Origin: an uncultured Candidatus Saccharibacteria bacterium
GTDB lineage: Bacteria; Patescibacteriota; Minisyncoccia; Minisyncoccales; CAYTKG01
DNA length: 26,105 bases
Direction of reading: 5' to 3'
Assembly: GCA_964539465.1 (NCBI GenBank)
Contig: CAZIIL010000001.1
Span: 1-26,105, forward strand
Part shown: in pieces, positions 1-22,670 of the stretch
How the letters are laid out: the number at the start of each line of letters is the position of its first letter
Position numbering within the stretch: position 1 is the first letter of the stretch
The notes under the pieces: model-generated
What the model was told of the DNA's origin: nothing
Seen by the model: the letters and a program-made list of their open reading frames with translations, nothing else
Database searches by the model: none
Translations under genes and position numbers: made by a program

Positions 1-474
1 AGGCTTGGATGGGATGGGGAGGTAACGCCTGATGTGTCCCTTGACGCCGAAGGCGTTGATTCCTCAACATCAGGTATTGAGGGGGGTGGAGAAATAGGAC
101 CTATGGAACAAATAGGGCAAATAGTAAAGCAAGCCCTCGCTGCGCTCGGGCTTGTATTTGAGGAAGGAGCAGCCCATATTGAGAAATTATTTGCCAAGGA
201 AATCGTGGTTGAGACAGCCAAGATTGAAAGGATAGAAATGATAGACCAAGCAACAGGAGAACCCTGGTGCACATGGATTGAAAATGGCGAATGGCTCAGG
301 GCGCAGGCATCTTGTGAAGACCTGCAACAAGGCGATGTGGAGTTGATATCTCCAAGCAGTGCAGGCGAGGAAGAAACAGGAGAAACAGAAGAGGCGTCAG
401 AGGATATTGAAGCCCAGATACAGCGTTTGCAGGAGATGATGGAGGAGTTGTTGGAAATGAGAGAAGGTCTATAG
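1..474 (+). CDS. C-terminal part (5'-truncated) of a probable large secreted/surface protein, acidic tail
   Basis: Frame is open from position 1 (RLGWDGEVTPDVSLDAEG...) to TAG at 472-474, so the gene starts outside the window. The segment LGLVFEEGAAHIEKLFAKEIVV..IEMIDQATGEPWCTWIENGEW resembles C-termini of CPR giant/tail-fibre-like proteins (recollection, unverified). Confidence 0.55.
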   Translation, partial: RLGWDGEVTPDVSLDAEGVDSSTSGIEGGGEIGPMEQIGQIVKQALAALGLVFEEGAAHIEKLFAKEIVVETAKIERIEMIDQATGEPWCTWIENGEWLRAQASCEDLQQGDVELISPSSAGEEETGETEEASEDIEAQIQRLQEMMEELLEMREGL

Positions 475-574
475 GACAAATAGGACGAATACGCCTCAAG
501 GCAAAGTTTCACTTTGCTTTAAGGGGGAGCAAGCAGATAAAATCTGCTCGCCCTGCAGAGCTTTGCTCCGCAGA
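471..574 (+). repeat. Mosaic palindromic element, copy 1
   Basis: ATAGGACAA-ATAGGACGA-ATACGC, then hairpins CAAGGCAAAG-TTTCA-CTTTGCTTT, GAGCAAGCAGAT-AAA-ATCTGCTCGC and GCAGAGCTTTGCTCCGC. Confidence 0.9.
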
Positions 575-606
575 ACACAAAAAGCCCTTGAAAGGGCTTT
601 TTGTGT
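575..606. terminator. Bidirectional intrinsic terminator
   Basis: Perfect 14-bp stem ACACAAAAAGCCCT-TGAA-AGGGCTTTTTGTGT with A and T tracts. Confidence 0.8.
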
Positions 607-615
607 GTGTTTTTA

Positions 616-624
616 TGTTAAAAT
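616..624 (+). promoter_or_regulatory. Extended -10 promoter (TGnTAAAAT), probably leaderless transcript
   Basis: TG-T-TAAAAT ends 6 nt before the ATG at 631; no SD present. Confidence 0.5.
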
Positions 625-630
625 AAAGCG

Positions 631-1692
631 ATGAAAAAGAGATTATTAGTAATTGACGCTAATGCGTTGGTGCATCGGGCATATCATGCCTTGCCGCCGC
701 TGAAAACAAAGAAAGGCGAATTGGTCAACGCTGTTTATGGCTTTTTATCAGTTTTTCTGAAAACAATAAAAGAACTCAAGCCGGATTATGTGGCGGCTTG
801 TTTTGATATGCCGGGTCCGACCTTTAGGCATAAAGAGTATAAAGAATACAAGGCAACACGGCCCAAAGCGCCAGATGAATTATATGAACAGATTCCAAAA
901 ATCAAGAGCTTTTTAGATGTTTTTAATGTCCCAATTTTTGAGAAACAGGGATTTGAGGCGGACGATATTCTTGCTACTATAGCAGAGAGTATGAGTGGGA
1001 CTAATGGGACCAGTACGCAGCAAGGCAAAGATAAGCTCCGCCCTGGAGAAGAAATAGAAACAATCATACTCACCGGAGATATGGATATCTTGCAGTTGGT
1101 GGGCAAGAATACCAAAGTATTTGCTTTGAGAAAAGGCATAAAAGATATGGTTTTATACGATAGCGCTAAGGTTCAAGAAAAATACGGCCTCTCCCCTGCT
1201 CAAATATCAGATATGAAAGGGTTGATGGGCGACGCTTCTGACAATATTCCTGGAGTGCCGGGCATTGGGCCAAAGACAGCCAGCCAATTACTTCAAAACT
1301 TTGATACGCTGGAGGGGGTTTATAAAGACGGGCTGGCAGAGCCAGCCCGTCACAATAAGACCTATAAAACCAATAGGACCAATACGCTCGCCGAAGAGGC
1401 GGGGAAGAGACGGGCTGGCCAAGCCAGCCCGTCTGGCGGAGCTTCGCTCCGCAGGGAAAGCGCAATAAGCCCGAGAATAAAAGAACTGTTGCTAAAATAC
1501 AAGGAGCAAGTGTTTCTTTCAAGGATGCTGGCAACTCTTAGATATGATGTACCTGTTCGTTTTCAACTGCAGGATTGTTTGTGGAAGGATTTTAACAAAG
1601 AAAAAGCAGCCCAGATGCTAAAGGATTTCGAATTTTATAGTTTGATTCAAAGATTGCCTGGAGAGCAAAGAGAACAGCGCGCCTTGTTTTAA
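631..1692 (+). CDS. Stand-alone 5'-3' exonuclease/flap endonuclease (PolA N-terminal domain) with two repeat-derived in-frame insertions
   Basis: LVIDANALVHRAYHA, FEADDILAT, ILTGDMD, LMGDASDNIPGVPGIGPKTA (H3TH motif). No polymerase domain follows. Confidence 0.93.
   Translation: MKKRLLVIDANALVHRAYHALPPLKTKKGELVNAVYGFLSVFLKTIKELKPDYVAACFDMPGPTFRHKEYKEYKATRPKAPDELYEQIPKIKSFLDVFNVPIFEKQGFEADDILATIAESMSGTNGTSTQQGKDKLRPGEEIETIILTGDMDILQLVGKNTKVFALRKGIKDMVLYDSAKVQEKYGLSPAQISDMKGLMGDASDNIPGVPGIGPKTASQLLQNFDTLEGVYKDGLAEPARHNKTYKTNRTNTLAEEAGKRRAGQASPSGGASLRRESAISPRIKELLLKYKEQVFLSRMLATLRYDVPVRFQLQDCLWKDFNKEKAAQMLKDFEFYSLIQRLPGEQREQRALF
996..1045 (+). repeat. Degenerate mosaic element inside the exonuclease CDS
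   Basis: 996-1030 matches intergenic copy 10114-10148 at 30/35 nt; encodes GTNGTSTQQGKDKLRP. Confidence 0.75.
1328..1463 (+). repeat. Full mosaic element inside the exonuclease CDS
   Basis: ACGGGCTGGC-AGA-GCCAGCCCGT, degenerate 9-mers ending AATAGGACCAATACGC, CGCCGAAGAGGCGGGG, AGACGGGCTGGC-CAA-GCCAGCCCGTCT, GCGGAGCTTCGCTCCGC. Confidence 0.92.
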
Positions 1693-1707
1693 ACAAAAGG
1701 GGCAATG

Positions 1708-1716
1708 TGGTAAAAT
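1708..1716 (+). promoter_or_regulatory. Extended -10 promoter candidate for the signalling locus
   Basis: TG-G-TAAAAT about 50 nt upstream of the ATG at 1769. Confidence 0.4.
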
Positions 1717-1768
1717 GAGAAAAAGGCTAAAAGGTCGGGTTAGTAATTATTAATTATCAAAAAATACT

Positions 1769-2333: not shown

Positions 2334-2370
2334 GGGGAGGCGGGCTGGCTTTGCCAGCCCGCAATAGGAC
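2334..2370 (+). repeat. Mosaic element (single hairpin plus one 9-mer core)
   Basis: GGGAG-GCGGGCTGGC-TTT-GCCAGCCCGC-AATAGGAC. Confidence 0.85.
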
Positions 2371-3246: not shown

Positions 3247-3843
3247 ATGCAAGAAAAACTTATAAAGAAAACAGCCGAGAGGTTGATGAATATTAAAGGA
3301 GAGGCAAGAGGCGTTATTTTAAAGACCGATGCTAAGTTTGTCGAAGGAAAAACTGGAGAAAAAGGATTAGAGCGATTGGAGCAGTGGCTCAAAGAGATGG
3401 GCTATCCAATAGAATATGAAAAGATTGAAACAATGGATTTTTACCCTATTGGTTTAAGAGTTATTTCCCTATTGGCAGTCCGAGAAGCTCTTGGTCTTTC
3501 TGATGATGGTGTCAGGAAGATGGGAAGGCATGCTCCAAAGATTTCTTTGGTGCTGAAACTATTTATGAAATTCTTTCTCTCCGTCGAAAAGACAATTGAG
3601 CAGGTTCCTGAGATGTGGAAGAAGCACTATACAATTGGAGAGTTAATTGCCGAAGCCGACGAAGAGAAGCGATATGCAAGGATAGAACTCAAGGGCCCAA
3701 TGATTCACCCCGTATTTTATCTTTATTTAGAGGGCTATTTCTCTATGGTTTTACAAATGGTTGTTAATAGCCCTGTTTTTTGTGAGGGAACGAAACGCGT
3801 CTCTGGGGAAGAGAGCTATTATGAATATCTGCTTAAATGGTGA
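3247..3843 (+). CDS. H-NOX/V4R-like ligand-binding protein
   Basis: KGEARGVILKTDAKFV...GLERLEQWL..MG..I...I..MDFYPIG and C-terminal HPVFYLYLEGYF...CEGTK...YEYLLKW resemble H-NOX/V4R (DUF2378-like) proteins. Starts 2 nt after the upstream stop. Confidence 0.6.
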   Translation: MQEKLIKKTAERLMNIKGEARGVILKTDAKFVEGKTGEKGLERLEQWLKEMGYPIEYEKIETMDFYPIGLRVISLLAVREALGLSDDGVRKMGRHAPKISLVLKLFMKFFLSVEKTIEQVPEMWKKHYTIGELIAEADEEKRYARIELKGPMIHPVFYLYLEGYFSMVLQMVVNSPVFCEGTKRVSGEESYYEYLLKW

Positions 3844-6146: not shown

Positions 6147-6524
6147 ATGGGAAACGCCACTAAAAAAATTCTTATTATCGAGGATGATAAATTTCTGAGA
6201 CAGTTGATTGTCCGCAAATTAACAGAGGAGGGCTATGATATCTCTGAGGCAGTGGATGGAGAGGAGGGAGTAAAGAAAGTGAAAGAGATAATGCCCGACC
6301 TGATTTTGTTAGACCTGATACTGCCCGGTATTGATGGTTTTGAGGTTTTATCTCGGATAAAGAGCGATGAGCCCACCAAGAAGATTCCGGTGATTATCCT
6401 TTCTAATCTTGGCCAGAAAGAAGATGTTGAAAGGGGTTTGAATCTGGGAGCGGTTGATTACTTGATAAAAGCGCATTTTACTCCAGGCGAGATTGTTGAG
6501 AAAATAAGAAGCGTTTTGGAGTAA
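6147..6524 (+). CDS. Single-domain response regulator (receiver only)
   Basis: ILIIEDDK, PDLILLDLILP, IILSNLG, LIKAHFTP. Confidence 0.93.
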   Translation: MGNATKKILIIEDDKFLRQLIVRKLTEEGYDISEAVDGEEGVKKVKEIMPDLILLDLILPGIDGFEVLSRIKSDEPTKKIPVIILSNLGQKEDVERGLNLGAVDYLIKAHFTPGEIVEKIRSVLE

Positions 6525-6526
6525 AA

Positions 6527-6680
6527 ATAGGACGCATATGCCGCAAGGCAAAGTGAAACTTTGCCTTGTGTTGCCAGCCCGCTCTTGGTAGCGGACTTTT
6601 CTTTTCTGTGGAAAACCTGTGTATAAAGTGTTCGATGCCGGGCATCGAACACTTTATAAAAACTGGCCACTGCCAGTTTT
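6527..6680 (+). repeat. Mosaic element with paired DnaA-box-like motifs and an 18-bp palindrome
   Basis: ATAGGAC, CGCAAGGCAAAGTGAAACTTTGCCTTGTG, GCCAGCCCGC, TGTGGAAAA-CC-TGTGTATAA, TATAAAGTGTTCGATGCC-G-GGCATCGAACACTTTATA, AAAACTGGC-CACT-GCCAGTTTT. Confidence 0.88.
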
Positions 6681-8032: not shown

Positions 8033-8108
8033 AAATAGGACCGATAGGCCGCAAGGCAAAGTTTCATTTTGCCTTGCGGGAGAGCGAGCAGATAAAATCT
8101 GCTCGCTC
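8033..8108 (+). repeat. Mosaic element between the divergent rpsT and ruvA genes
   Basis: ATAGGACCG-ATAGG, CCGCAAGGCAAAGTTTCATTTTGCCTTGCGG, GAGCGAGCAGAT-AAA-ATCTGCTCGCTC. Confidence 0.9.
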
Positions 8109-8225
8109 GAAATGTACAACATGGAAAGTTGCGCAAGAGGAGGGCTATCTTCCAGATATAATGTATAAAAGGAAATCGAGAATATGATATAATGTTTTAA
8201 TACTTAATAACCCCAACACTAATCT

Positions 8226-8796: not shown

Positions 8797-10113
8797 ATGG
8801 AGAACAAAGTGCTTTGCTTTTTTATTAATCAATATCATTTTTTGTGGGCTCTATTGGGCGCTATATTCTTTGGTTTTTTATCTTGTCTTCACAGATGCTT
8901 TAATAAGCGGGCAAAAAAGATAAAGATTATCGGAGTTACTGGGACAAGCGGCAAATCCACCGTGATTGATTTGACAGGCAATATATTAGAGGAAGCGGGC
9001 TACAGGGTTGCAACTCTGTCTTCAATCAAATTCAAGATTGGCAACCAAGAGCAGAAGAACAAAATGAGAATGACAATGCCCGGTCGGGCTGTTATTCAGA
9101 GATTTCTTTGGCAGGCAATGAGGGCTGGTTGTGAATATGCCATATTAGAGATTACATCCGAGGGAATCTTGCAGCACAGGCATAGATTCATTGATTTTAA
9201 TGCAGCGGTTTTTACCAATCTAAGTCCTGAGCATATTGAACGCCATGGCTCATTTGAGAACTACAGAGAAGCAAAAGCAAGGTTTTTTAGAGCAGTGAAA
9301 AAGACACATATAATCAATTTAGACGATAAGAATGCTGATTATTTTTTGCAATTTTCAGCAGGCAGGAAATATCTTTATAATCTCAAATCTGAATCGTCAA
9401 TCGCCAATGGTGAAATTACTGCAGAGGGCGCGGCAGTTTCAAGTTCCGGAGTAAGTTTTTCTGTAAGAGGTGTTAAGTTTAATCTGAAATTATTAGGCAG
9501 ATTTAATATCTATAATGCTCTTGCTGCAATATGTGTCGGTCTTTCTCAAGGCATTGATTTGGAAACTTGTAAAAAAGGATTAGAAAAGATAAGGGGCGTC
9601 TCGGGGAGGATGGAGTTGATCATTTCTAAGCCCTTTAGGATTTTTGTTGATTACGCCATTACCCCCAACGCATTAGAGCAGGTTTATCAAACAATTAGAC
9701 AGAACTTTCTCTCTATGGATTCTCTAAATGCACAGGGCGGGAAAATGATTTGTGTTTTTGGTTCTTGCGGCGGGGGAAGGGATAAGTGGAAGAGGCCGGT
9801 TATAGGAAGATTGGCGGCTCAATATTGCGACAAGGTGATTCTTACTAACGAAGACCCTTATGGCGAAGACCCAGAGCAGATTTTATTGGAAATAAAATCT
9901 GGAATTCCGAACGAAAAAATGCCGATAGTAAGCTTGATTTTAGACAGGCGAGCAGCTATTAAGAAAGCGCTTGATTTAGCTCGAGAAAACGACACTGTTA
10001 TTATTACTGGCAAGGGTTGCGAGCCCTCTATGTGCTTGGCAAAAGGGAAACAGATAGCATGGGACGACAGGCAAGTGGTGAGAGAAGAATTTGAGAAATT
10101 GACTAAGAGATAA
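8797..10113 (+). CDS. murE: Mur ligase, MurE-like (UDP-N-acetylmuramyl-tripeptide synthetase family)
   Basis: IGVTGTSGKST, LEITSEG, FTNLSPEHIERHG, Y.EAK, GRFNIYNALAA, VSGRME, FGSCGGGRDKWKRP, TNEDPY, IITGKG. Confidence 0.8.
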   Translation: MENKVLCFFINQYHFLWALLGAIFFGFLSCLHRCFNKRAKKIKIIGVTGTSGKSTVIDLTGNILEEAGYRVATLSSIKFKIGNQEQKNKMRMTMPGRAVIQRFLWQAMRAGCEYAILEITSEGILQHRHRFIDFNAAVFTNLSPEHIERHGSFENYREAKARFFRAVKKTHIINLDDKNADYFLQFSAGRKYLYNLKSESSIANGEITAEGAAVSSSGVSFSVRGVKFNLKLLGRFNIYNALAAICVGLSQGIDLETCKKGLEKIRGVSGRMELIISKPFRIFVDYAITPNALEQVYQTIRQNFLSMDSLNAQGGKMICVFGSCGGGRDKWKRPVIGRLAAQYCDKVILTNEDPYGEDPEQILLEIKSGIPNEKMPIVSLILDRRAAIKKALDLARENDTVIITGKGCEPSMCLAKGKQIAWDDRQVVREEFEKLTKR

Positions 10114-10222
10114 TAGGACGAATAGGACCAATACGCTGCAAGGCAAAGTGAAACTTTGCCTTGCGGGGAGGCGGGCTGGCAAAGCCAGCCCGCCCAGCGA
10201 AGCTTCGCTCCGCAGAAAAAGC
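10112..10222 (+). repeat. Mosaic element between murE and archease
   Basis: ATAGGACGA-ATAGGACCA-ATACGC, GCAAGGCAAAGTGAAACTTTGCCTTGC, GCGGGCTGGC-AAA-GCCAGCCCGC, GCGAAGCTTCGCTCCGC. Confidence 0.92.
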
Positions 10223-10227
10223 GAAAT

Positions 10228-10632
10228 ATGAAGAATTTTGAGATTTTAGAACATAGCGCAGACCTGAAGATTAGGGCTTTTGGCAGCGATAAAGAGCAGC
10301 TTTTTTGGAATATGATGCGGGGAATGCAGGCGAGCTTGCGGTCTAACCCAAGCGAACAGAAAACAGAAACAAAAATAATGGTTCAATCCGAAGACCTGCT
10401 ATCTTTATTAGTTGATTTTTTATCAGAAATTAATTATCTAAACGAGATTAATCAAGAGGTTTATTACAGAATAAAGTTTGATAAATTCTCCGACACCGAG
10501 TTAGAAGCTGAACTTTCTGGCTACAAGGTCAAAAGGTTTGGGTTGCAAATCAAGGGAGTTACCTTTCATGATTTAGATGTGAGCCAGAAACAAGATGGGC
10601 AATGGGAGGCAACGGTTTTGTTTGATATATAA
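10228..10632 (+). CDS. Archease
   Basis: FEILEHSADL.IRAFG, LLVDFLSE, IKGVTFH, C-terminal LFDI; immediately upstream of rtcB. Start moved to ATG 10228. Confidence 0.92.
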   Translation: MKNFEILEHSADLKIRAFGSDKEQLFWNMMRGMQASLRSNPSEQKTETKIMVQSEDLLSLLVDFLSEINYLNEINQEVYYRIKFDKFSDTELEAELSGYKVKRFGLQIKGVTFHDLDVSQKQDGQWEATVLFDI

Positions 10633-10636
10633 AATT

Positions 10637-13588
10637 ATGGGGAAAAAGATATTTAAAAAAATTAATGATTATCTGTGGGAGATTCCGGCAAGCCACCGTA
10701 GGTTTATGAGGGTTCCAGCGCGGATTTATGCTTCTGAGAAAATATTAGAAGATGTGGAACCCGATGCCTTGGAGCAATTAATCAATGTTGCGTCTTTGCC
10801 TGGAATTGTCAAATATTCTTTTGCTATGCCAGACATTCATACCGGCTATGGTTTTGTTATTGGCGGCGTGGCGGCTACAAAACTTCCAGAAGGCGTGATT
10901 TCTCCCGGCGGTATCGGTTTTGACCAGAATTGCACCGTTCCCAACACAAGAGTTTTATCAAGCATGGGTTTTTACTTACCCATTAAGGACCTAGAAAAAA
11001 ACAAAACGAAAGTAAGATTTGTTGATATTGATAAGAATAATTTAGGAACTTCAGAGGTTATCCGTTTCATAAAGCAGTATAATAATCCAAGTATCTATAA
11101 GATAACTACAGAATCAGGGGAAGAATTAGAAGTTACAAAGGATCATCCCATTCAAACGGAGAGTGGCATGAAGGAGGTTAGAAATGTTAAAAATGGGGAG
11201 AAAGTATTAATTTATCCCTTCAAAGGAGTGGAATTCCAATATCCTGTTTCAGATGTTATTTTGAATGAGGAAAAATTTAGAAAAATTCTGAAAAAATTCA
11301 ATAAAACTGAGAAAGGAAATGCTATTCTGCAAATTTTAAATTATATTAAATTCCGAGGGTTTTTGCCCTTGAGATATAATTCTCCTTCCTTACCTCATAT
11401 TTTAAAAATAATGGGGTTTATTTTTGGCGATGGGGCTGTGACAATTAATAAAGACGGAAAGGGAACCGTACAGTTTTATGGGAAAAAGGAGGACTTGGAA
11501 CAAATCCGTGAAGATGTAAAAAGAATTGGCCTTGTGCCCTCGAGAATATATTCCCGAGAAAGAAACCATTCTATTACTAATTTTTATGGCAAGCAGGAAT
11601 TTACGACAACCGAGCAACACTTTAAGGTAACTACCACTGCCTTCGCACTTTACTTGGTGGCTCTCGGGACACCCTATGGCCTTAAAGCGCATCAGGAATA
11701 TAGAGTTCCAGAATGGATTTTCAATTGTCCATTATGGCAAAAGAGATTGTTTTTAGCATCTTTTTTCGGAGCTGAACTTTCAAAGCCTTCAACCTCTAAT
11801 AATAAGTATAATCTTCATGCACTACAGTTTAGTGTAAGCAAGAAAGTAGAGTTGAAAGAAAATGCAAAAATGTTTTTAGAAGATATTAAAAGACTTTTAA
11901 GCGGTTTTGAGATCGGAAGTTCGCCTATTCAAGAAGTCCCTGGTTATCAATATAATGGTAAACTCGGGAAGACAACTGCTTTTAGGCTACATATTAATGG
12001 AAATAGTGAAAATCTTATAAGATTTTTTGAGTCAATTAGCTATGAATATAATCAAGAAAGACAAAGAGAGGCTTGTTTAGCGGCCAGTTACTTAAAAAGG
12101 AAATTGAGAATAGTAGAAATTAGGACTAAGACAAGGGACAGGGCATTTGAGCTTTATAAACAGGGAGAAAAAATAAAAAATATCATTAAAAGCCTTTCCA
12201 GCAGATATGCTCCTCCTCAATTTATTAAACACTCGTTTTTCAAGAGTAAAAGAGGAAAACCAAGAATCTCTTTTGATTTTCTATCCTTTGAAGAATACAA
12301 GAAGAAATATGCTTTTGGGGAGAGTGGTTTGGTTTGGGAGAAAATTGAAAAGATAGAAGAGATTCCATACTCAGGTTCTGTTTTTGACATTACTATCAAT
12401 GATATAAATCATAACTTTATTGCTAATAACTTTGTTGTTTCAAATTGCGGGATTCGTGTTCTGAAAACAGAATACAAGAAAGAGGAAATTATGCCTTTTA
12501 TTGATAGATTGGCAACAGAAATGCAGAGACGGGTTCCGTCTGGATTAGGCAGAGGACATAAAACAAAGTTAAGCGTAGCGCAGATAGACAAAGTATTGAA
12601 AAATGGTGTTTCCTATCTTGTGAGCCAAGGATATGGCGACGAGCAAGATATAGAAAATTGCGAGGCAAGAGGCAAGATGGAGCAGGCAGATGTAGCTACG
12701 GTTTCAGAAAGAGCTAAAAATAGAGGCAGGAACCAATTGGGTACATTGGGCAGCGGCAACCATTTTCTTGAAGTCCAAAAAGTTGAGGAAATTTTTGACG
12801 AACAAACAGCCAAAGTTTTTGGGCTTTTTGAGAATCAAGTAGTAGTAATGATTCATACGGGTTCCAGAGGGTTAGGGCATCAAAATTGTACTGATTATTT
12901 GAGGATTGTAATGAAAGCAATGCCGAAGTATGGGATAAGCCTGCCGGATAAGGAATTGGCGTGTGTTCCATTTAATTCTTCTGAGGGGCAGAGATTTTTT
13001 GGGGCTATGTCGGCTGCTGCTAACTTTGCGTGGGGAAATCGACATATGATAAGCCATTATGTCAGGAGAGCGTGGCAGGATGTTTTGGGCAAGGAAGCAA
13101 AGCTTGACTTGCTTTATGATGTTGCCCATAACATTGCTAAGGTTGAAGAGCATATAATTGATGGCAAGAAAATGAAATTATGTGTTCATCGCAAAGGCGC
13201 GACAAGGGCTTTCCCGCCAGGGCATTTGGAGATTCCAGCGCAATATAGGACTGTTGGCCAGCCGGTTTTAATTCCTGGTTCTATGGGAACTGCTTCTTAT
13301 ATTTTAGCCGGAACAGAACAAGGCAGCCCATCTTTTTTCTCAACCTGCCACGGCGCTGGCAGAAGGATGTCGCGAACCAGAGCAAGAAAAACTATTTCAG
13401 GGGAACAAGTTATTGAGGAGTTGAAAAGAAAAGGAATCTTGGTAAGATGTTATTCAGTAAGGGGTATTGCCGAAGAAGCGCCTCTTTCTTATAAAGATGT
13501 TGATAATGTGGTTGAGGTTGTGCATCAGGCAGGCCTGGCAAAAAAAGTAGCGAGGTTGGTGCCCTTGGCTGTTATTAAAGGAGAATAA
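10637..13588 (+). CDS. rtcB: RNA-splicing/repair ligase RtcB, intein-containing (478-aa extein)
   Basis: MPDIHTGYG, GGIGFDQN|CGIR, GSGNHFLE, HTGSRG, HNIAK, HRKGATRA, STCHGAGR. Confidence 0.96.
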   Translation: MGKKIFKKINDYLWEIPASHRRFMRVPARIYASEKILEDVEPDALEQLINVASLPGIVKYSFAMPDIHTGYGFVIGGVAATKLPEGVISPGGIGFDQNCTVPNTRVLSSMGFYLPIKDLEKNKTKVRFVDIDKNNLGTSEVIRFIKQYNNPSIYKITTESGEELEVTKDHPIQTESGMKEVRNVKNGEKVLIYPFKGVEFQYPVSDVILNEEKFRKILKKFNKTEKGNAILQILNYIKFRGFLPLRYNSPSLPHILKIMGFIFGDGAVTINKDGKGTVQFYGKKEDLEQIREDVKRIGLVPSRIYSRERNHSITNFYGKQEFTTTEQHFKVTTTAFALYLVALGTPYGLKAHQEYRVPEWIFNCPLWQKRLFLASFFGAELSKPSTSNNKYNLHALQFSVSKKVELKENAKMFLEDIKRLLSGFEIGSSPIQEVPGYQYNGKLGKTTAFRLHINGNSENLIRFFESISYEYNQERQREACLAASYLKRKLRIVEIRTKTRDRAFELYKQGEKIKNIIKSLSSRYAPPQFIKHSFFKSKRGKPRISFDFLSFEEYKKKYAFGESGLVWEKIEKIEEIPYSGSVFDITINDINHNFIANNFVVSNCGIRVLKTEYKKEEIMPFIDRLATEMQRRVPSGLGRGHKTKLSVAQIDKVLKNGVSYLVSQGYGDEQDIENCEARGKMEQADVATVSERAKNRGRNQLGTLGSGNHFLEVQKVEEIFDEQTAKVFGLFENQVVVMIHTGSRGLGHQNCTDYLRIVMKAMPKYGISLPDKELACVPFNSSEGQRFFGAMSAAANFAWGNRHMISHYVRRAWQDVLGKEAKLDLLYDVAHNIAKVEEHIIDGKKMKLCVHRKGATRAFPPGHLEIPAQYRTVGQPVLIPGSMGTASYILAGTEQGSPSFFSTCHGAGRRMSRTRARKTISGEQVIEELKRKGILVRCYSVRGIAEEAPLSYKDVDNVVEVVHQAGLAKKVARLVPLAVIKGE
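10931..12445 (+). mobile_element. Intein with LAGLIDADG homing endonuclease (505 aa)
   Basis: N-terminal Cys (CTVPNTRV), block B (TKDHPI), block C IMGFIFGDG, block E FLASFFGAEL, C-terminus FDITI..NHNFIANNFVVSN followed by Cys+1. Confidence 0.93.
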
Positions 13589-13801: not shown

Positions 13802-13948
13802 ATGAAGAAAAAACTTCCCAGATCCATACGCAAATATATCAGAAAGGAAAAAGCCCGGATTCGTCGGGAGGTTTTAGATTTAGAGGAGAGAAAGACATTA
13901 ATAGGCCAACTTTATAATAAATTTCTAAAACAAAATAAAGAGAAATGA
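13802..13948 (+). CDS. Small basic hypothetical protein, 48 aa (absent from the ORF track)
   Basis: MKKKLPRSIRKYIRKEKARIRREVLDLEERKTLIGQLYNKFLKQNKEK; its TGA overlaps the next ATG (ATGA). Confidence 0.65.
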   Translation: MKKKLPRSIRKYIRKEKARIRREVLDLEERKTLIGQLYNKFLKQNKEK

Positions 13949-14892
13949 AGATTCAAGAAATATACAATTTAGCTCTTCAAATGGGCAAGGAGAGCGATTT
14001 CCGAGGAGCCGAGAGTATAGAAAAAATGCTAAAGAGACGAAGAGAATTGTTCGATAAACTGCCAGAAGAAAAGAAAAAGGATTTTGATAGAGATGATCTG
14101 ATTAACCCTTTCCCCGACTCAAGGGTTCTCAATGTGTCAGAAGATAAAGAAATAAAAAAGATTATGTTCGGCATTGACATTGCTCCAGCCGAACTCTTAA
14201 TGGCAAAGGAGATTGAAGGCATTGACCTAGTTATATCTCATCATCCTTTGGGAAAAGGATTAGCCAAATTATGGAGTGTGATGCAGCTTCAATGCGATGT
14301 CTTAGCTTATTATGGCGTGCCCATAAACATTGCCGAGGGTTTGATGACAGAAAGGATATCAGAGGTGGCTCGCGGGATTAATGCAATTAACCACCAAAGG
14401 ACAGTAATGGCTGCCGAACTATTGGGCTTTAATCTAATGTGCCTGCATACTATTTGCGATAATTTAGCCGCCAGATTCTTAAGAGAAAATATTGAGTCGG
14501 CAAAACCAGAAAGAGTTGGGGACATTATTGATTTACTCAAAAAACTCCCTGAATATCAAAAAGCGGTAAGCATTGGGGCGGGGCCAAAAATATTTGTCGG
14601 CAGTAGAGAGAACAGATGCGGCAAGATTGCCCTGACAGAGATTACTGGCGGCACCGAGGGCTCATCTAAGATTTATCAGAAAATAGCTCAAGCAGGTATT
14701 GGTACGGTGATAGGAATGCATATGAGCAAGGAGCATTATGAAGAAGCCAAGACAGCTTTCATTAATGTAGTGATTGCTGGGCATATGTCTTCTGATTCCT
14801 TGGGAATAAATATATTCTTAGATGAGTTGGAGAAAAGAGGAATTGAAATTGTCCCCTGTTCTGGTTTAACTCGTGTGTCGCGGGTGAAGTAG
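13945..14892 (+). CDS. NIF3/YqfO-like dinuclear metal-centre protein
   Basis: KKIMFGID, DLVISHHP, MCLHTICDN, IGTVIGMH, IAGHMSSDSLG. Confidence 0.8.
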   Translation: MKIQEIYNLALQMGKESDFRGAESIEKMLKRRRELFDKLPEEKKKDFDRDDLINPFPDSRVLNVSEDKEIKKIMFGIDIAPAELLMAKEIEGIDLVISHHPLGKGLAKLWSVMQLQCDVLAYYGVPINIAEGLMTERISEVARGINAINHQRTVMAAELLGFNLMCLHTICDNLAARFLRENIESAKPERVGDIIDLLKKLPEYQKAVSIGAGPKIFVGSRENRCGKIALTEITGGTEGSSKIYQKIAQAGIGTVIGMHMSKEHYEEAKTAFINVVIAGHMSSDSLGINIFLDELEKRGIEIVPCSGLTRVSRVK

Positions 14893-14897
14893 AACGT

Positions 14898-15072
14898 ATA
14901 GGACCAATAGGACCAATACGCCCGCCGAAGAGGCGGGGGAAGAGCAAGCAGATTTTATCTGCTTGCTCTGCGGAGCTCCGCTCCGCAGGGAAAAGAGCAA
15001 AGCTTCGCTTTGCAGGAAAAAACTGTGGAAAATCTGTGCATAAAGTGTTCGATGCCGGGCATTGAACACTTT
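14898..15072 (+). repeat. Mosaic element with paired DnaA-box-like motifs and a long palindrome
   Basis: ATAGGACCA x2-ATACGC, CCGCCGAAGAGGCGG, AGAGCAAGCAGAT-TTT-ATCTGCTTGCTCT, GCGGAGCTCCGCTCCGC, GCAAAGCTTCGCTTTGC, TGTGGAAAA-TC-TGTGCATAA, AAAGTGTTCGATGCC-G-GGCATTGAACACTTT. Confidence 0.92.
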
Positions 15073-15083
15073 TGAGAAGCTAT

Positions 15084-16700
15084 TTAGAGGTTTTTTACCA
15101 TATAGGTGTTTTTGAGCCGATAGCCCAATTTGCGATAATAATCTCTGACTCCGATACCAGCAATCACGGATATTTTTTTCAAGCCGAACTCATCCTTTGC
15201 AATACTTTCTGCGCTTTTGATTAATTGCTTTCCCAAGCCCTTATGCTGTGGTGAAATCATGGAGTCCTGTCCTCTGTGGTTTGTTTTTAAGGAAAGTTGT
15301 GGCCCAAAGGTTTGGATTTCACGAATAATAGCAGTACGAGAAGTGTTCTCGCATTGAATTCGCAATCTGAGTAAACTGAAAAGCTTTGTTCTCTCTTTGT
15401 TTTCAAAACTAAGAAAAATCTCTTTGCCGCCAGATGCCTCATAATCTTCGCGAAAAAGATTAATTTTTTCTTGGGGGCAATATCTTGCTCTTACCTCGCG
15501 GCAGCGGATGCAATGACATCTCTTGTTCTGCTTTTTTAATTCCAGCGCTACAACCTCTCTTAGATTTGAAGCCCTACAGCCGGCAATGATACTATATGAA
15601 GGAATATCACGGAATATTCTTGCAACCCTAACCCAATAAGGCAGATGTGTTTTGATTGTAATCAATAGTTTAACCAGTTGTTTGCAAGAGTATGGTTTAT
15701 ATCCACCCCCTTTCCACACATTCAAGAGTTTTGTTTTCGGGCAGACAACACAGGGGTAAATTTTGAGCCAATCAGGCCTGAATCTTGCGTCGTTGAAAAG
15801 AATTTGAAAGCATTCTAAATCCCTGCTTAGATTAGAGCCGGGCAGATTGGGCATTATTTGGTAAAGAACCTTAAATCCAGCATTCTTTAGTATTTGGGTG
15901 GCTTGGCTAATCTTTTGGACAGCCATTCCTGTGCGGCATTTTTTCAGAATATCGTCAAAGACGGTTTGAACTCCTAACTCTACCAGTGTTACGCCCAATT
16001 TTCTCAACCGTAAGACCTCTTTTCTATCAATAAAATCAGGTCTAGTTTCAATAGATAAGCCGACAATTCTATTCCTGGCTGTTTCATTTTTCTTTTGAAC
16101 TTTTCCCAGCAGAACAAGTCCCTTTTTATTAGGGACACGTTTCGTTTTAACATGCCCTATTTTAAACTCATTAGCCGCTTGGAAGCAGCGCTTAATAAAC
16201 CATGTCTGATATTGCTTTGGATAAAAGGACCATGTTCCGCCAACAATTCTTAATTCGATTTTATCAATAGGATGACCCTGATAATTCAATGACTCTAATC
16301 TCTTCTGAACCTGAAGATAGGGATCGAAGCCGAGGGCCTTTGCCCTGTCAGCAGCTGGTTCGCCGCTGACATAACTCTTAGGAAATCCTTTTTCGGTTGG
16401 ACAGTAGATACATTGGCCAGGGCAGGGGTATGGCTTGGTTAAGACAGAGATATTGACAATGCCAGACAAGGAGCGGATGGGCCGGGTTATCAAGAGATTC
16501 TCAATAATTTTTGACTTCCTGATTGTTTTATTTTTTACTAATCTATGATAGATTTTTAGCAAGTCGACATTAGACGGAAAAGATGTCCCAAATTCTTTTG
16601 CAAATCTGCGCTTTGTCTTTTCTAAATTCTCCCGACTACCGATGTTGTGGTCAGCGAGATACTTAACGAGTAGCTTCTTTTGCTTTTTATGCTCTATCAT
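15084..16700 (-). CDS. elp3: Elp3-family tRNA uridine(34) acetyltransferase (radical SAM + GNAT)
   Basis: RSLSGI..ISVLTKPYPCPGQCIYCP, PKSYVSGEPA, GGTW, ETRPD, VELGVQ, MPNLPG, LKIYP, CIRCRE, QHKGLG, VIAGIGVRDYYRKLGY. Confidence 0.93.
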   Translation of the reverse strand: MIEHKKQKKLLVKYLADHNIGSRENLEKTKRRFAKEFGTSFPSNVDLLKIYHRLVKNKTIRKSKIIENLLITRPIRSLSGIVNISVLTKPYPCPGQCIYCPTEKGFPKSYVSGEPAADRAKALGFDPYLQVQKRLESLNYQGHPIDKIELRIVGGTWSFYPKQYQTWFIKRCFQAANEFKIGHVKTKRVPNKKGLVLLGKVQKKNETARNRIVGLSIETRPDFIDRKEVLRLRKLGVTLVELGVQTVFDDILKKCRTGMAVQKISQATQILKNAGFKVLYQIMPNLPGSNLSRDLECFQILFNDARFRPDWLKIYPCVVCPKTKLLNVWKGGGYKPYSCKQLVKLLITIKTHLPYWVRVARIFRDIPSYSIIAGCRASNLREVVALELKKQNKRCHCIRCREVRARYCPQEKINLFREDYEASGGKEIFLSFENKERTKLFSLLRLRIQCENTSRTAIIREIQTFGPQLSLKTNHRGQDSMISPQHKGLGKQLIKSAESIAKDEFGLKKISVIAGIGVRDYYRKLGYRLKNTYMVKNL

Positions 16701-17447: not shown

Positions 17448-17519
17448 GTCCCTGTAGTCCAATGGATAGAACATCGGCCTCCGGAGCCGAAGATGCGCGT
17501 TCGAATCGCGCCAGGGACA
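17448..17519 (+). tRNA. tRNA-Arg (anticodon CCG), CCA not encoded
   Basis: Acceptor GTCCCTG/CAGGGAC, anticodon arm TCGGC-CTCCGGA-GCCGA, T-arm GCGCG-TTCGAAT-CGCGC. Confidence 0.96.
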
Positions 17520-17520
17520 C

Positions 17521-17668
17521 ATAGGACACATAGGAAAAAATAGGACGAATAAGAAAAATAGGACATATAGGACCGATAGGACCAATACGCCCGCCGAAGA
17601 AGCGGGGAAGAGCCAGCCCGCGCAGCGGAACTTTACTCCGCTTTGCTCTGGGGAGCGTCGGGCAACGC
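17521..17668 (+). repeat. Mosaic element with the longest 9-mer array (7 units), abutting the tRNA 3' end
   Basis: ATAGGACAC, ATAGGAAAA(A), ATAGGACGA, ATAAGAAAA, ATAGGACAT, ATAGGACCG, ATAGGACCA, then ATACGC, CCGCCGAAGAAGCGG, GCCAGCCCGC, GCGGAACTTTACTCCGC. Confidence 0.92.
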
Positions 17669-20449: not shown

Positions 20450-21922
20450 ATGACAAAGAGATTCTATGTCACCACAGCAATAGATTATGTTAATGCTCCT
20501 CCCCATATAGGCCATGCTCTAGAGAAGATACAAGCGGATGTATTGGCAAGGTATCATCGTTTTTTGAAAGAGGATGTTTTTTTTCTAACCGGTACGGATG
20601 ATAATGCTCAAAAGAATGTGCAGGCGGCTGATAAACAAGGACTTCCCATACAGGAATTCACCAATAGAAACGCAGCGGTTTTTAAAGAAATGGGAAAACT
20701 CTTAAATGTATCTAACAACGACTTTATCCGAACCAGCAGCAAGTCCGAACATTGGCCAGGGGTAGTTAAACTCTGGCAGGAATGTCAAAAAGCAGGCGAT
20801 ATTTATCAAAAAGAATATTCGGGACTTTATTGCTTGGGGTGCGAGGCATTTATAACGGAAAAGGACCTGGAAAACGGGCTTTGCCCAGAACACCTGAAAG
20901 CGCCGGAGCGGGTTTCTGAGAAGAACTATTTTTTTCGTCTTTCAAGATATCAAGACAAATTAAAGAGATTAATTAAAAGCGATAAATTAAGGATTGTTCC
21001 AGAGAAAAGAAAGAATGAAACCCTAAAGTTTATTGAGTCGGGCTTGGAGGATTTCAGCGTTTCGCGGCCAGCCGAACGGATGAAAAACTGGGGCATTCCT
21101 GTCCCCGGCGATAATAGCCAGATTATCTATGTCTGGTATGACGCCCTAAGCAACTATATTACTGGCTTGGGCTATGGAAGAAAGGACAATAAATTATTTA
21201 AAAGATTCTGGCCAGCCGATGTCCATGTTATAGGCAAGGGAATTCTGCGTTTCCATGCGGTTTTTTGGCCTGCTATGATACTTTCTACTGGATTAGAATT
21301 GCCTCGGACAATATTTGTTCATGACTATATCACTGTTGGTGGGCAAAAGATGTCAAAGACAATAGGAAACATTATTAACCCTATTGAGTTGGTAGAGAAA
21401 TATGGGACAGACCCTGTCAGATATTTTTTCCTAAGGGAGTTTTCTCCCTTCCAAGATGGAGATTTTTCCTACAAGCGATTGGAAGATAGATATAATTCTG
21501 ATTTAGCAAAAGGGTTAGGAAATTTGACGGCCAGGATTCTAACAATGGCTCAAAAAACATTTACGGAAAGTGTTAAGTATAACCCCGATTCTCAATTTAA
21601 GAGTTTATTTGAAAAAACTACAAAACAGATAGGACAGCATATGCAGAACTTTCGTTTTAATGATGCTGTAGCCGCTGTCTGGCAGTTGATAGGATTCTGC
21701 GATAGATATATTGAGAAAGAGCGACCATGGGAAGAAGGAAAAGAACAGGCGCTCAATAATCTGCTTGCCGCTTTATCCCACATTGCTTTAAGTCTGCAGC
21801 CGTTTTTGCCAGGTACTTCAGAAAAGATTTTTAAACAATTGGGGATAAAGAATAAAAGCAAACCATTATTATTCAGGGTTGGAAAAGGTGAGTCACTATT
21901 TCCCCGCTTGGAAAAGGAATAG
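20450..21922 (+). CDS. metG: Methionine--tRNA ligase (short form)
   Basis: FYVTTAIDYVNAPPHIGH, TGTDDNAQK, YCLGCE, CPEH, YVWYDAL, GKGILRFH, KMSKT. Confidence 0.97.
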   Translation: MTKRFYVTTAIDYVNAPPHIGHALEKIQADVLARYHRFLKEDVFFLTGTDDNAQKNVQAADKQGLPIQEFTNRNAAVFKEMGKLLNVSNNDFIRTSSKSEHWPGVVKLWQECQKAGDIYQKEYSGLYCLGCEAFITEKDLENGLCPEHLKAPERVSEKNYFFRLSRYQDKLKRLIKSDKLRIVPEKRKNETLKFIESGLEDFSVSRPAERMKNWGIPVPGDNSQIIYVWYDALSNYITGLGYGRKDNKLFKRFWPADVHVIGKGILRFHAVFWPAMILSTGLELPRTIFVHDYITVGGQKMSKTIGNIINPIELVEKYGTDPVRYFFLREFSPFQDGDFSYKRLEDRYNSDLAKGLGNLTARILTMAQKTFTESVKYNPDSQFKSLFEKTTKQIGQHMQNFRFNDAVAAVWQLIGFCDRYIEKERPWEEGKEQALNNLLAALSHIALSLQPFLPGTSEKIFKQLGIKNKSKPLLFRVGKGESLFPRLEKE

Positions 21923-21987
21923 GATACATAGGACCAAATAGGATTAATACGCCGCAAGGCAAAGTGAAACTTTGCCTTGCGGCGTAT
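21918..21987 (+). repeat. Mosaic element with a perfect 19-bp hairpin
   Basis: 9-mer-like units followed by ATACGCCGCAAGGCAAAGT-GAA-ACTTTGCCTTGCGGCGTAT. Confidence 0.92.
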
Positions 21988-22023
21988 GTAATTGTTCAAT
22001 CTTCCAGATTAAACAATTGGAGA

Positions 22024-22075
22024 TATTGCTTTTTCGGCAGATTTGTGTTATAAGGGCACAATGTTGCTCTTTACT
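22024..22075 (+). promoter_or_regulatory. Duplicated promoter/leader, copy 1
   Basis: TTGCTT-17 nt-TATAAG; 47/52 identical to 22595-22646; followed by AGGAGGTGA. Confidence 0.75.
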
Positions 22076-22090
22076 TTAGGAGGTGAAGAC

Positions 22091-22544: not shown

Positions 22545-22594
22545 TATTTGGGTGTTGTGTAACGAGGTCAGACCTTGTTACAGTGCCTTGAGGG

Positions 22595-22646
22595 TATTGC
22601 TTTTTCGGCAGATTTGTGGTATAAGAATACAATATTGCTCTTTACT
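22595..22646 (+). promoter_or_regulatory. Duplicated promoter/leader, copy 2
   Basis: TTGCTT-17 nt-TATAAG with extended TG; 47/52 identical to copy 1. Confidence 0.75.
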
Positions 22647-22670
22647 ATAGTTCACCTTAGGAGGTGAGAA

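Follow-up and report, generated by a model that had tools for sequence, protein, structure and literature searches.

A dispersed hairpin repeat is built in frame into the flap endonuclease (FEN) gene carried by the metagenomic contig CAZIIL010000001.1 (positions 1 to 26,105; this whole stretch of 26,105 nt is referred to below as the window). The insert occupies positions 1327..1464 of the + strand, that is 138 nt or 46 codons, and is a complete mosaic of the structure D-A4-E-D-F-tail, in which every base could be assigned to some repeat module. We consider it quite likely that this is a recent, translated and tolerated in-frame insertion of a mosaic resembling repetitive extragenic palindromes (REPs) and bacterial interspersed mosaic elements (BIMEs), which replaced a linker in a permissive loop of FEN. 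Judging by the best protein hits, the host appears to be an uncultured, ultrasmall member of Patescibacteria (Paceibacteria/Parcubacteria-type).

The host gene (631..1692, + strand) encodes a protein of 353 aa, identified by Pfam, homologues, AlphaFold2 (AF2) and Foldseek as a standalone 5'-3' exonuclease / flap endonuclease of the PolA N-terminal-domain type. Two nuclease domains score above the curated Pfam cut-offs: the N-terminal resolvase-like domain PF02739 at residues 4-186 (E=8.5e-52, 175.6 bits) and the H3TH/SAM-fold domain PF01367 (E=2.8e-28, 98.7 bits). PF01367 matches in two stretches, residues 188-234 corresponding to profile positions 2-48 of 97 and the remainder lying beyond the insert. 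This split agrees with a preliminary description of the same DNA, which had placed the insert right after the helix-3-turn-helix (H3TH) motif. The description took the host for a PolA gene, and here it has to be corrected. The open reading frame (ORF) ends at residue 353 (position 1692) and the next gene 3' of it codes for a PocR-domain protein, so the product is a standalone FEN and not the N-terminus of a PolA polymerase; a fusion of 5'-nuclease, 3'-5' exonuclease and polymerase (PF00476) was rejected for the same reason.

The gene looks functional. Its 353 codons contain neither a stop nor a frameshift, and the acidic metal-binding residues D9, D59, E109, D111, D112, D150, D152, D201 and D204 are invariant across 118 homologues including the window protein. 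The AF2 model, built from a 118-sequence alignment, has a predicted local distance difference test (pLDDT) value of 86.9 and a predicted template modelling (pTM) score of 0.84; the only two internal stretches of low confidence are residues 240-274 (pLDDT <50, coil) and 121-140 (63-69). Foldseek matched the model to the targets 6C33 and 3ZDC, with target-length normalised TM scores of 0.78-0.79 for M. smegmatis FenA and 0.89-0.92 for E. coli ExoIX. The closest relative, P0002 on the 3.8 kb contig L001 of an ENA metagenome, is 78% identical overall; outside two variable sites the DNA is 92.0% identical and there are 15 differences in 282 residues. For this framework dS equals 0.353 and dN/dS 0.078, and derived changes at conserved positions are split about evenly between the window and L001 lineages. 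Purifying selection appears to act on the framework, and the nuclease fold and catalytic residues are, as far as sequence and model can tell, intact. A decaying pseudogene with its frame still open by chance would fit the presence of two insertions in one gene and of a few derived changes at conserved positions, but such a state is extremely improbable given the low dN/dS, the uninterrupted frame with all catalytic residues kept and the confident fold prediction; moreover, no second 5'-nuclease gene was seen in the window.

The insert encodes the peptide DGLAEPARHNKTYKTNRTNTLAEEAGKRRAGQASPSGGASLRRESA, residues 233-278 of FEN. It begins with a first copy of module D (1327..1351), a perfect 11-bp stem with the loop AGA (GACGGGCTGGC-AGA-GCCAGCCCGTC), followed by module A (1354..1386), which consists of three 9-mers and a partial one (AATAAGACC, TATAAAACC, AATAGGACC, AATACG). 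Hairpin E (1387..1404, CTCGCC-GAAGA-GGCGGG) has one T-G mismatch at the DNA level. It is followed by the second copy of D (1409..1433), again a perfect 11-bp stem but with the loop CAA, by hairpin F (1436..1452, GCGGAGC-TTC-GCTCCGC) and by the cluster tail AGGGAAAGCGCAATA (1453..1467), all on the + strand. The tail matches positions 10214-10228, just before the archease start codon. The preliminary description had correctly recognised an in-frame mosaic made wholly of modules found intergenically, with its borders 1 nt off at each end; the perfect stems that it reported hold for both D copies and fail for hairpin E. Both D copies share a compensated G>A / C>T stem variant, intergenic D copies being GGCGGGC...GCCCGCC; all 22 nt of the stem agree between the two copies, whereas none of the three loop positions does. 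Compared with the intergenic clusters, the insert is 97% identical over 36 nt (14903-14938), 95% over 37 nt (17576-17612) and 86% over 57 nt (10172-10228). The longest exact match elsewhere in the window is 19 nt, so the insert is a separate, slightly diverged copy. Folded as RNA, it reaches -78.5 kcal/mol (z = -8.0 vs dinucleotide shuffles) and has a hairpin right at its left border. In the AF2 model the low-confidence coil of residues 240-274 lies between confidently predicted helices 227-233 and 281-289, in keeping with a surface or loop position.

Comparison with homologues defines what the mosaic has displaced. The segment between Y231 and the next helix has 14 aa in 87 of the 118 homologues and 49 aa in the window, and the corresponding inter-helix linker in Taq and M. 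smegmatis Pol I has ~4-5 residues. The borders are sharp relative to L001, with identity up to GTTTATAAAG and again from CAATAAGCCC; the right one is ambiguous by ~3-6 nt, because CAATA is common to the insert and L001. No duplication was found at the insert junctions when the window and L001 were compared. The native linker of ~11 aa (consensus KELEENSEKVKSIK) was replaced by the mosaic, not merely interrupted, so the earlier notion of an insertion stands for the in-frame repeat copy and falls for a simple addition of sequence. At the same place, termed site 2 below, L001 carries a different 22-aa repeat-derived segment; it contains a hairpin whose outer stem is that of module B (CCGCAG...CTGCGG) and cannot be aligned to the window mosaic. 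Since neutral DNA at dS 0.35 is expected to retain ~70-75% identity, the content of site 2 must have turned over since the split. The recent origin proposed previously is consistent with the intact stems, with the 86-97% identity to intergenic copies and with the absence of the mosaic from L001, where flanking DNA is 92% identical. The expectation that relatives would show a gap in this lineage only proved half right: most homologues have the 14-aa linker, but L001 has its own repeat-derived segment and other lineages have hairpin inserts of their own. A six-frame peptide search with a 269-aa query among 5.8 billion proteins found the mosaic peptide only in the window protein.

There are no in-frame stops in 1327-1464 and the normal C-terminus of FEN resumes in frame, as had been noted before. 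The TAG of the A unit closes one phase of the element and the TAA of the tail a second, which leaves a single fully open phase, the one used by FEN. Module A is read there as N-K-T-Y-K-T-N-R-T-N-T, placing the A-unit TAG out of frame. Translation would give rise to the insert-derived tryptic peptides DGLAEPAR, TNTLAEEAGK and AGQASPSGGASLR.

We propose that a composite repeat copy entered the linker after the H3TH helices. A copy length of 138 nt restores the reading frame, and 46 codons in the only open phase would allow the ribosome to read through the insert. Read-through would add a hydrophilic, disordered loop of 46 residues and leave the catalytic core intact. As a random hit meets both the length and the phase conditions at roughly 1 in 9, the outcome calls for no more than selection among many insertions. 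Selection would then only filter inserts by frame and position, the segment itself being presumably roughly neutral, and the perfect stems may reflect its youth and/or self-templated palindrome correction rather than a function in FEN expression.

Alternatively, the mosaic could be removed or skipped at the RNA level, by excision or by a bypass of the T4 gene 60 type, with hairpins serving as a signal. The very stable structure with a hairpin at the left border and the perfect stems inside coding DNA would suit such a process, and a required RNA structure, bypass or RNA-level removal had been put forward in the preliminary description. We find this highly improbable. No in-frame stop forces take-off in 1327-1464, and AAA/GGG take-off codons land only in the phase running into TAA 1466-1468, leaving no frame-restoring landing pair; programmed bypass was rejected on these grounds. 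At the gathering score Rfam gives only tRNA-Arg and no ribozyme or intron, and a permissive Rfam scan of 1250-1550 gives generic hairpins of <=22 bits vs cut-offs of 36-107. No intein domain was found either, the two nuclease domains being the only ones above Pfam cut-offs, and a self-splicing intron, a ribozyme and an intein were accordingly discarded as candidates. The structure is absent from the L001 orthologue. Eight of eight inserts in five loci are in frame and stop-free, as expected from translation but not from removal, an argument weakened by the fact that only full-length homologues were retrieved.

The insert represents one complete unit of the grammar (D)-A(n)-(B or E)-(C or D)-F-tail-(G), which is followed in the same order and orientation by eight intergenic clusters of the window, usually sitting just downstream of genes. 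The array part of the repeat is composed of 9-nt-periodic ATAGGACNN units and the other parts are short G+C-rich hairpins. AATAGGAC has 11 matches in the window, all on the + strand, vs 0.68 expected from shuffling; for the D, E and F patterns the counts are 4, 3 and 5, each vs 0 expected. Perfect G+C-rich hairpins are concentrated in the ~13% of the window that is non-coding (16 out of 20), and three of the four coding ones belong to the FEN insert. Stems are conserved and loops vary or flip (GTGAAAC or GTTTCAC in B; ATAAAAT or ATTTTAT in C; AAA, TTT, AGA or CAA in D), and stem changes are compensated: the B stem carries A-T in the window as against G-C in L001, and the D stem is G-C between genes as against A-T in the two copies within FEN. 

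The repeat family is apparently undescribed. Rfam has no family matching the repeat elements or the 9-mer arrays, and our literature searches found no paper containing the 9-mer array strings and none pairing a term for the Candidate Phyla Radiation (CPR) or Patescibacteria with the searched REP or MITE (miniature inverted-repeat transposable element) phrases. No transposase is present among the 21 window proteins scanned. A scan of genome contigs for hairpin B returned a single unrelated metagenome-assembled genome (L002, candidate division FCPU426, 56% G+C), a scan of metagenomes for hairpin C gave no match, and neither did scans of viral contigs for D and for the A-E junction. As these scans yielded no further DNA of the lineage, it is represented only by the window and the 3.8-kb contig L001.

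FEN carries a second insert of this kind. Site 1 (982..1056, + strand; residues 118-142, 25 aa vs the modal 13) contains a decayed A-B-F-like mosaic recognised by repeat-family matches (families D1, D6 and I13 of the repeat search) and is 88% identical to 10116-10148 over 33 nt. Its RNA structure is gone (z = 0.7 or 0.0), and the orthologous, diverged insert of L001 holds AATAGGACC and an E-like module. By these sequence features, site 1 is the older of the two FEN events.

Hairpin inserts recur at the same two loops in other lineages. Among the 118 homologues, internal insertions of >=6 aa occur only there, and the DNA of syntenic relatives shows lineage-specific hairpin repeats at these sites in four or more further Patescibacteria lineages. 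In L123 (P0072) the two FEN inserts have 50 and 78 aa (z = -4.6 and -6.5). One 40-nt hairpin module is common to both FEN sites of L123 and another ORF, a second module is found at FEN site 2 and again, in frame, within an ELP3-like radical-SAM gene, and a histidine kinase contains a clean 19-aa hairpin insert relative to the window and L125; the in-frame modules outside FEN are located at 8064-8150 (histidine kinase), 15426-15500 (ELP3-like radical-SAM) and 738-799 (another ORF). L127 (P0021) has G+C-rich hairpins at the FEN sites (z = -3.0 and -3.2). L128 (P0082) has the same ATAGGACC 9-mers at both sites, read in frame as IGPIGP, with a hairpin following them at site 2 (z = -6.0). In L129 (P0014) a 20-nt perfect palindrome lies within a 16-aa insert, the protein sequence of which is conserved in six homologues. 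Another homologue of 505 aa, P0003, repeats ~165 residues of its FEN core in tandem from the site-2 loop onward, a duplication that may be real or an assembly chimera.

Several observations weigh against a recent, neutral and translated insertion. Translation of the insert is something we infer from the open frame. The window-specific changes G225D and A294V affect conserved positions adjoining the insert, so the function could be altered. The identity of the two D stems in combination with differing loops hints at some force keeping the stems, beyond neutrality alone. Of the ~23 window genes FEN alone carries such inserts, and therefore the donation of peptides by repeats to many genes can be stated only for the relative L123. 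Finally, the insert rests on a single assembly, and the exact protein is found on no other contig of the collection.

As an alternative, the insertion may not be neutral but alter the activity or expression of FEN and be kept by selection or hitch-hiking. It could weaken the processing of flaps and hairpins, acting as a local mutator that favours the spread of the repeat, slow down translation, or stabilise the mRNA by its structure of -78 kcal/mol. Besides the D stems and the derived substitutions near the insert, this is favoured by FEN being the sole gene hit in the window, and hit twice, by the use of the same two loops in at least five lineages, and by the report that repair and replication genes are often the sole REP-tagged ones, for which a mutator effect was proposed (Di Nocera et al. 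2013, PMC3733652). We nevertheless think it unlikely. Among the 118 homologues only two disordered loops take insertions, which is what a filter for tolerance alone would predict; the nearest relative does not share the mosaic, no structure is left in the older insert, and the framework dN/dS remains low. About equally doubtful is a bolder idea, that the two loops are preferred and not merely permissive landing sites for hairpin/9-mer repeats across Paceibacteria, and that the inserts tune the enzyme that normally removes hairpin-forming 5' flaps, with a feedback by which selfish palindromes would weaken or retarget the very nuclease holding their spread in check. If true, it would make the mutator idea of Di Nocera et al. 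(PMC3733652) testable in a minimal genome.

A chimeric join induced by repeats could also have put a cluster from elsewhere into FEN during assembly. This would suit a segment that is built of dispersed repeats and known from one metagenomic contig, with no second contig encoding its protein. However, both junctions are in one gene, in frame and exactly at a loop that is variable in relatives. The longest exact match of 19 nt is below the k-mer sizes that we assume for short-read assembly, the insert is marked by substitutions of its own, among them the GACG...CGTC variant of both D stems, and the independent assembly L001 has repeat-derived DNA at both sites. An artefact is thus very unlikely, more so than an insertion that is not neutral, and a tolerated insertion of a genuine repeat copy is retained as the preferred explanation.

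The intergenic clusters, all on the + strand, differ in the modules they contain. They include those at 472..573 (A2-B-C-F, homologous to L001 1553-1675), 8034..8108 (A-B-C) and 21918..21987 (A3-B). A D-A cluster at 2339..2370 lies between PocR and the next gene, its A unit ending 7 nt before ATG 2378, and the cluster at 6526..6658 (A-B-...-G) separates convergent genes. Cluster 10112..10227 (A2-B-D-F-tail) separates the genes of the Mur ligase and the archease; in the relative L125 the two genes have an overlap of 4 nt. The tail of this cluster ends 1 nt before the archease ATG. Cluster 14888..15072 has the composition A3-E-C-F-F'-G. The one at 17513..17641 (A(about 8)-E-half D-F) extends from the 3' end of tRNA-Arg(CCG) and is the closest relative of the A-E part of the insert; its A array starts on the last bases of the tRNA (17448-17520), the 3' acceptor strand of which, CAGGGACA, resembles the A unit. 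Module G is a 59-nt repeat with 88% identity between copies (6606-6664 and 15023-15081) and a 14-17 bp perfect hairpin. It was found only in the two convergent intergenic regions of the window, adjoining the 3' ends of minus-strand genes.

The A units also supply stop codons or back them up. Of the window's four TAG stops, three come from a first A unit, namely those of ORF 34-474 (472-474), of gene 13945-14892 (14890-14892, where the unit is degenerate) and of the MetRS gene (21920-21922), and so does one in L001 (1555-1557). The fourth window TAG stop (22510) lies within a TAGGTC-like sequence, and two TAA stops (10111-10116; 6522-6530) are backed by an in-frame array TAG 0-1 codons later. 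A filter against C-terminal extensions explains most of this coincidence. We discarded an apparent tendency of ATAGGAC arrays in many phyla to start on the stop of the upstream gene, as the test is biased, an open frame in the TAG phase being bound to end at that codon; a count over all three phases gives 32:27:24. The phasing of arrays and stops holds only for those genes of the window and L001 that were verified by homology.

Tandem ATAGGACNN 9-mers extend beyond this lineage. They occur on at least 120 metagenome contigs (L003-L122) of 28-71% G+C, for example at L003 511-595, L063 25-135, L064 5644-5741 and L017 4313-4337. Among the matches listed, about one third of the hits are inverted array pairs, i.e., potential long hairpins, many arrays are at contig ends and a few are collagen-like coding repeats.

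Clusters also differ in presence and position between the window and L001. Upstream of FEN, synteny between window 1-630 and L001 1-1711 is lost precisely at the homologous A-B-C-F cluster; the gene upstream of the break is an ORF related to L123 454-771 in the window and YceG in L001. Downstream, a cluster of ~250 nt is present in L001 (2714-3014) and absent from the window (1693-1768, AGAAAAAGG-CT-AAAAGGTCG). It sits between two AAAAGG-like copies, and AAAAGG is already doubled in the empty site; these copies could be a footprint or a target duplication. L001 also has nested repeats, an 85-nt element (GTCATACTGAGGAGCGGTAGCGACGAAGTATCCC...CCCTCAGAATGAC) at 2811-2895 and 3675-3760, located directly after CCGCAGGGCAAAGTT within the loop of hairpin B.

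The other window genes show few or no gaps relative to their orthologues, apart from an intein in RtcB and a gap of 10 aa close to the Mur ligase N-terminus. RtcB (10595-13588, 997 aa) contains a ~500-aa intein with a LAGLIDADG-like domain (residues ~127-617), and its orthologues in L123 and L125 have no intein. A 63-nt direct repeat with 86% identity (22017-22079 and 22588-22650) precedes two small ORFs and may be a duplicated promoter or leader.

Overall, streamlined Patescibacteria genomes can hold prolific modular hairpin repeats, about nine clusters in 26 kb in this case, which reshape proteins, supply stop codons and mark a synteny break. One more enzyme of DNA repair and replication is affected by in-frame repeats. 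The recurrent use of two loops constitutes a natural map of large-insertion tolerance in FEN, and FEN with and without the insert is a simple system for distinguishing neutrality from altered repair. For annotation, caution is needed, as low-complexity segments in CPR proteins can be translated repeat DNA.

Several known systems are comparable. BIMEs of enterobacteria are mosaics of REP units and linker motifs (Ton-Hoang et al. 2012, as cited in PMC3733652), contain related palindromes in two alternating orientations and are extragenic by definition. Like them, the clusters described here are modular mosaics of small palindromes in set combinations, found at gene 3' ends and inside operons; unlike them, they combine up to five unrelated hairpins in one order with a tandem 9-mer array. 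Cyanobacterial short tandemly repeated repetitive (STRR) heptamer arrays are located downstream of ORFs, and Nostoc has small dispersed repeats nested in other repeats. Short oligomer arrays downstream of ORFs and nesting small hairpins, such as the 85-nt element of L001, are similar to these by description only, the unit being 9 instead of 7 nt, the sequence different and the phylum another. A MITE was rejected, since the cluster ends, from the A array to the F-tail, are not mutual inverted repeats and no duplication exists at the FEN junctions.

Perfect inverted repeats that are translated inside coding sequences are described for mitochondrial genes of Nematomorpha, which according to PMC6649704 are long palindromes (up to 284 bp) of organelle genes and not copies of a dispersed intergenic repeat. 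The classical in-frame palindromic repeats are the Rickettsia palindromic elements (RPEs; Ogata et al. 2000, as summarised in PMC10969869), with which the preliminary description had drawn a parallel that holds for the way the insertion works. By that summary, both are dispersed palindromic elements of ~100-150 bp that lie in frame in a housekeeping gene, leave its ORF open and occupy positions that the fold can accommodate (AF2 coil in FEN). RPEs, as outlined there, occur with a conserved peptide in dozens of unrelated genes, whereas the FEN mosaic is in one gene in 26 kb and its peptide is unique among 5.8 billion proteins; an RPE-like in-frame spread over several genes is seen in the relative L123, with other modules. 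As remarked in PMC3733652, RPEs have CGTC at their end; the window elements do not, except for the two FEN D copies, in which CGTC is paired.

The closest parallel to the affected gene is provided by REPs tagged with GTAG/CGTC, intragenic copies of which occur in genes for replication and repair, among them that of DNA polymerase I (Di Nocera et al. 2013, PMC3733652), and in this respect the phenomenon is less novel than the preliminary description assumed. Intragenic REP clusters encode 43-82 aa, the tagged genes are sometimes the only tagged ones in a genome, and the authors speculate on mutator effects of REP-tagged repair genes (PMC3733652). Like intragenic REPs, the window repeats are short G+C-rich palindromes, mostly extragenic and downstream of genes (PMC3733652), and they agree with the REP definition of multicopy G+C-rich palindromes of 20-40 nt mostly downstream of ORFs. 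The FEN insert likewise resembles the occasional in-frame units, dimers or clusters of REPs, often found in DNA synthesis and repair genes (PMC3733652). Unlike REPs, none of the 19 hairpin copies of the window outside FEN carries an unpaired GTAG or CGTC tag. In the FEN copies GACG/CGTC is paired within both D stems, and what was scored as a tag next to E and F belongs to the ends of the second D copy, so membership in the GTAG/CGTC-tagged REP superfamily was ruled out by the missing unpaired tag. Nor are there head-head or tail-tail dimers of one unit: different hairpins follow the 9-mer array in a fixed order and only loops flip. The gene of a REP-associated tyrosine transposase (RAYT), typical of REP systems, was not found within the window (21 window proteins scanned), and Patescibacteria are not among the eight phyla listed for intragenic REPs (PMC3733652).

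Most likely, we are dealing with the same phenomenon as in RPEs and intragenic REPs, in a new phylum and with an untagged repeat architecture. The FEN case differs from known REPs in phylum, in the lack of tags, in an ordered multi-hairpin grammar with a 9-mer array and in a two-loop hot spot common to several lineages. While the in-frame event itself is ordinary for such repeats, the repeat family, its streamlined CPR host and the recurrent hot spot in FEN are what sets this system apart.

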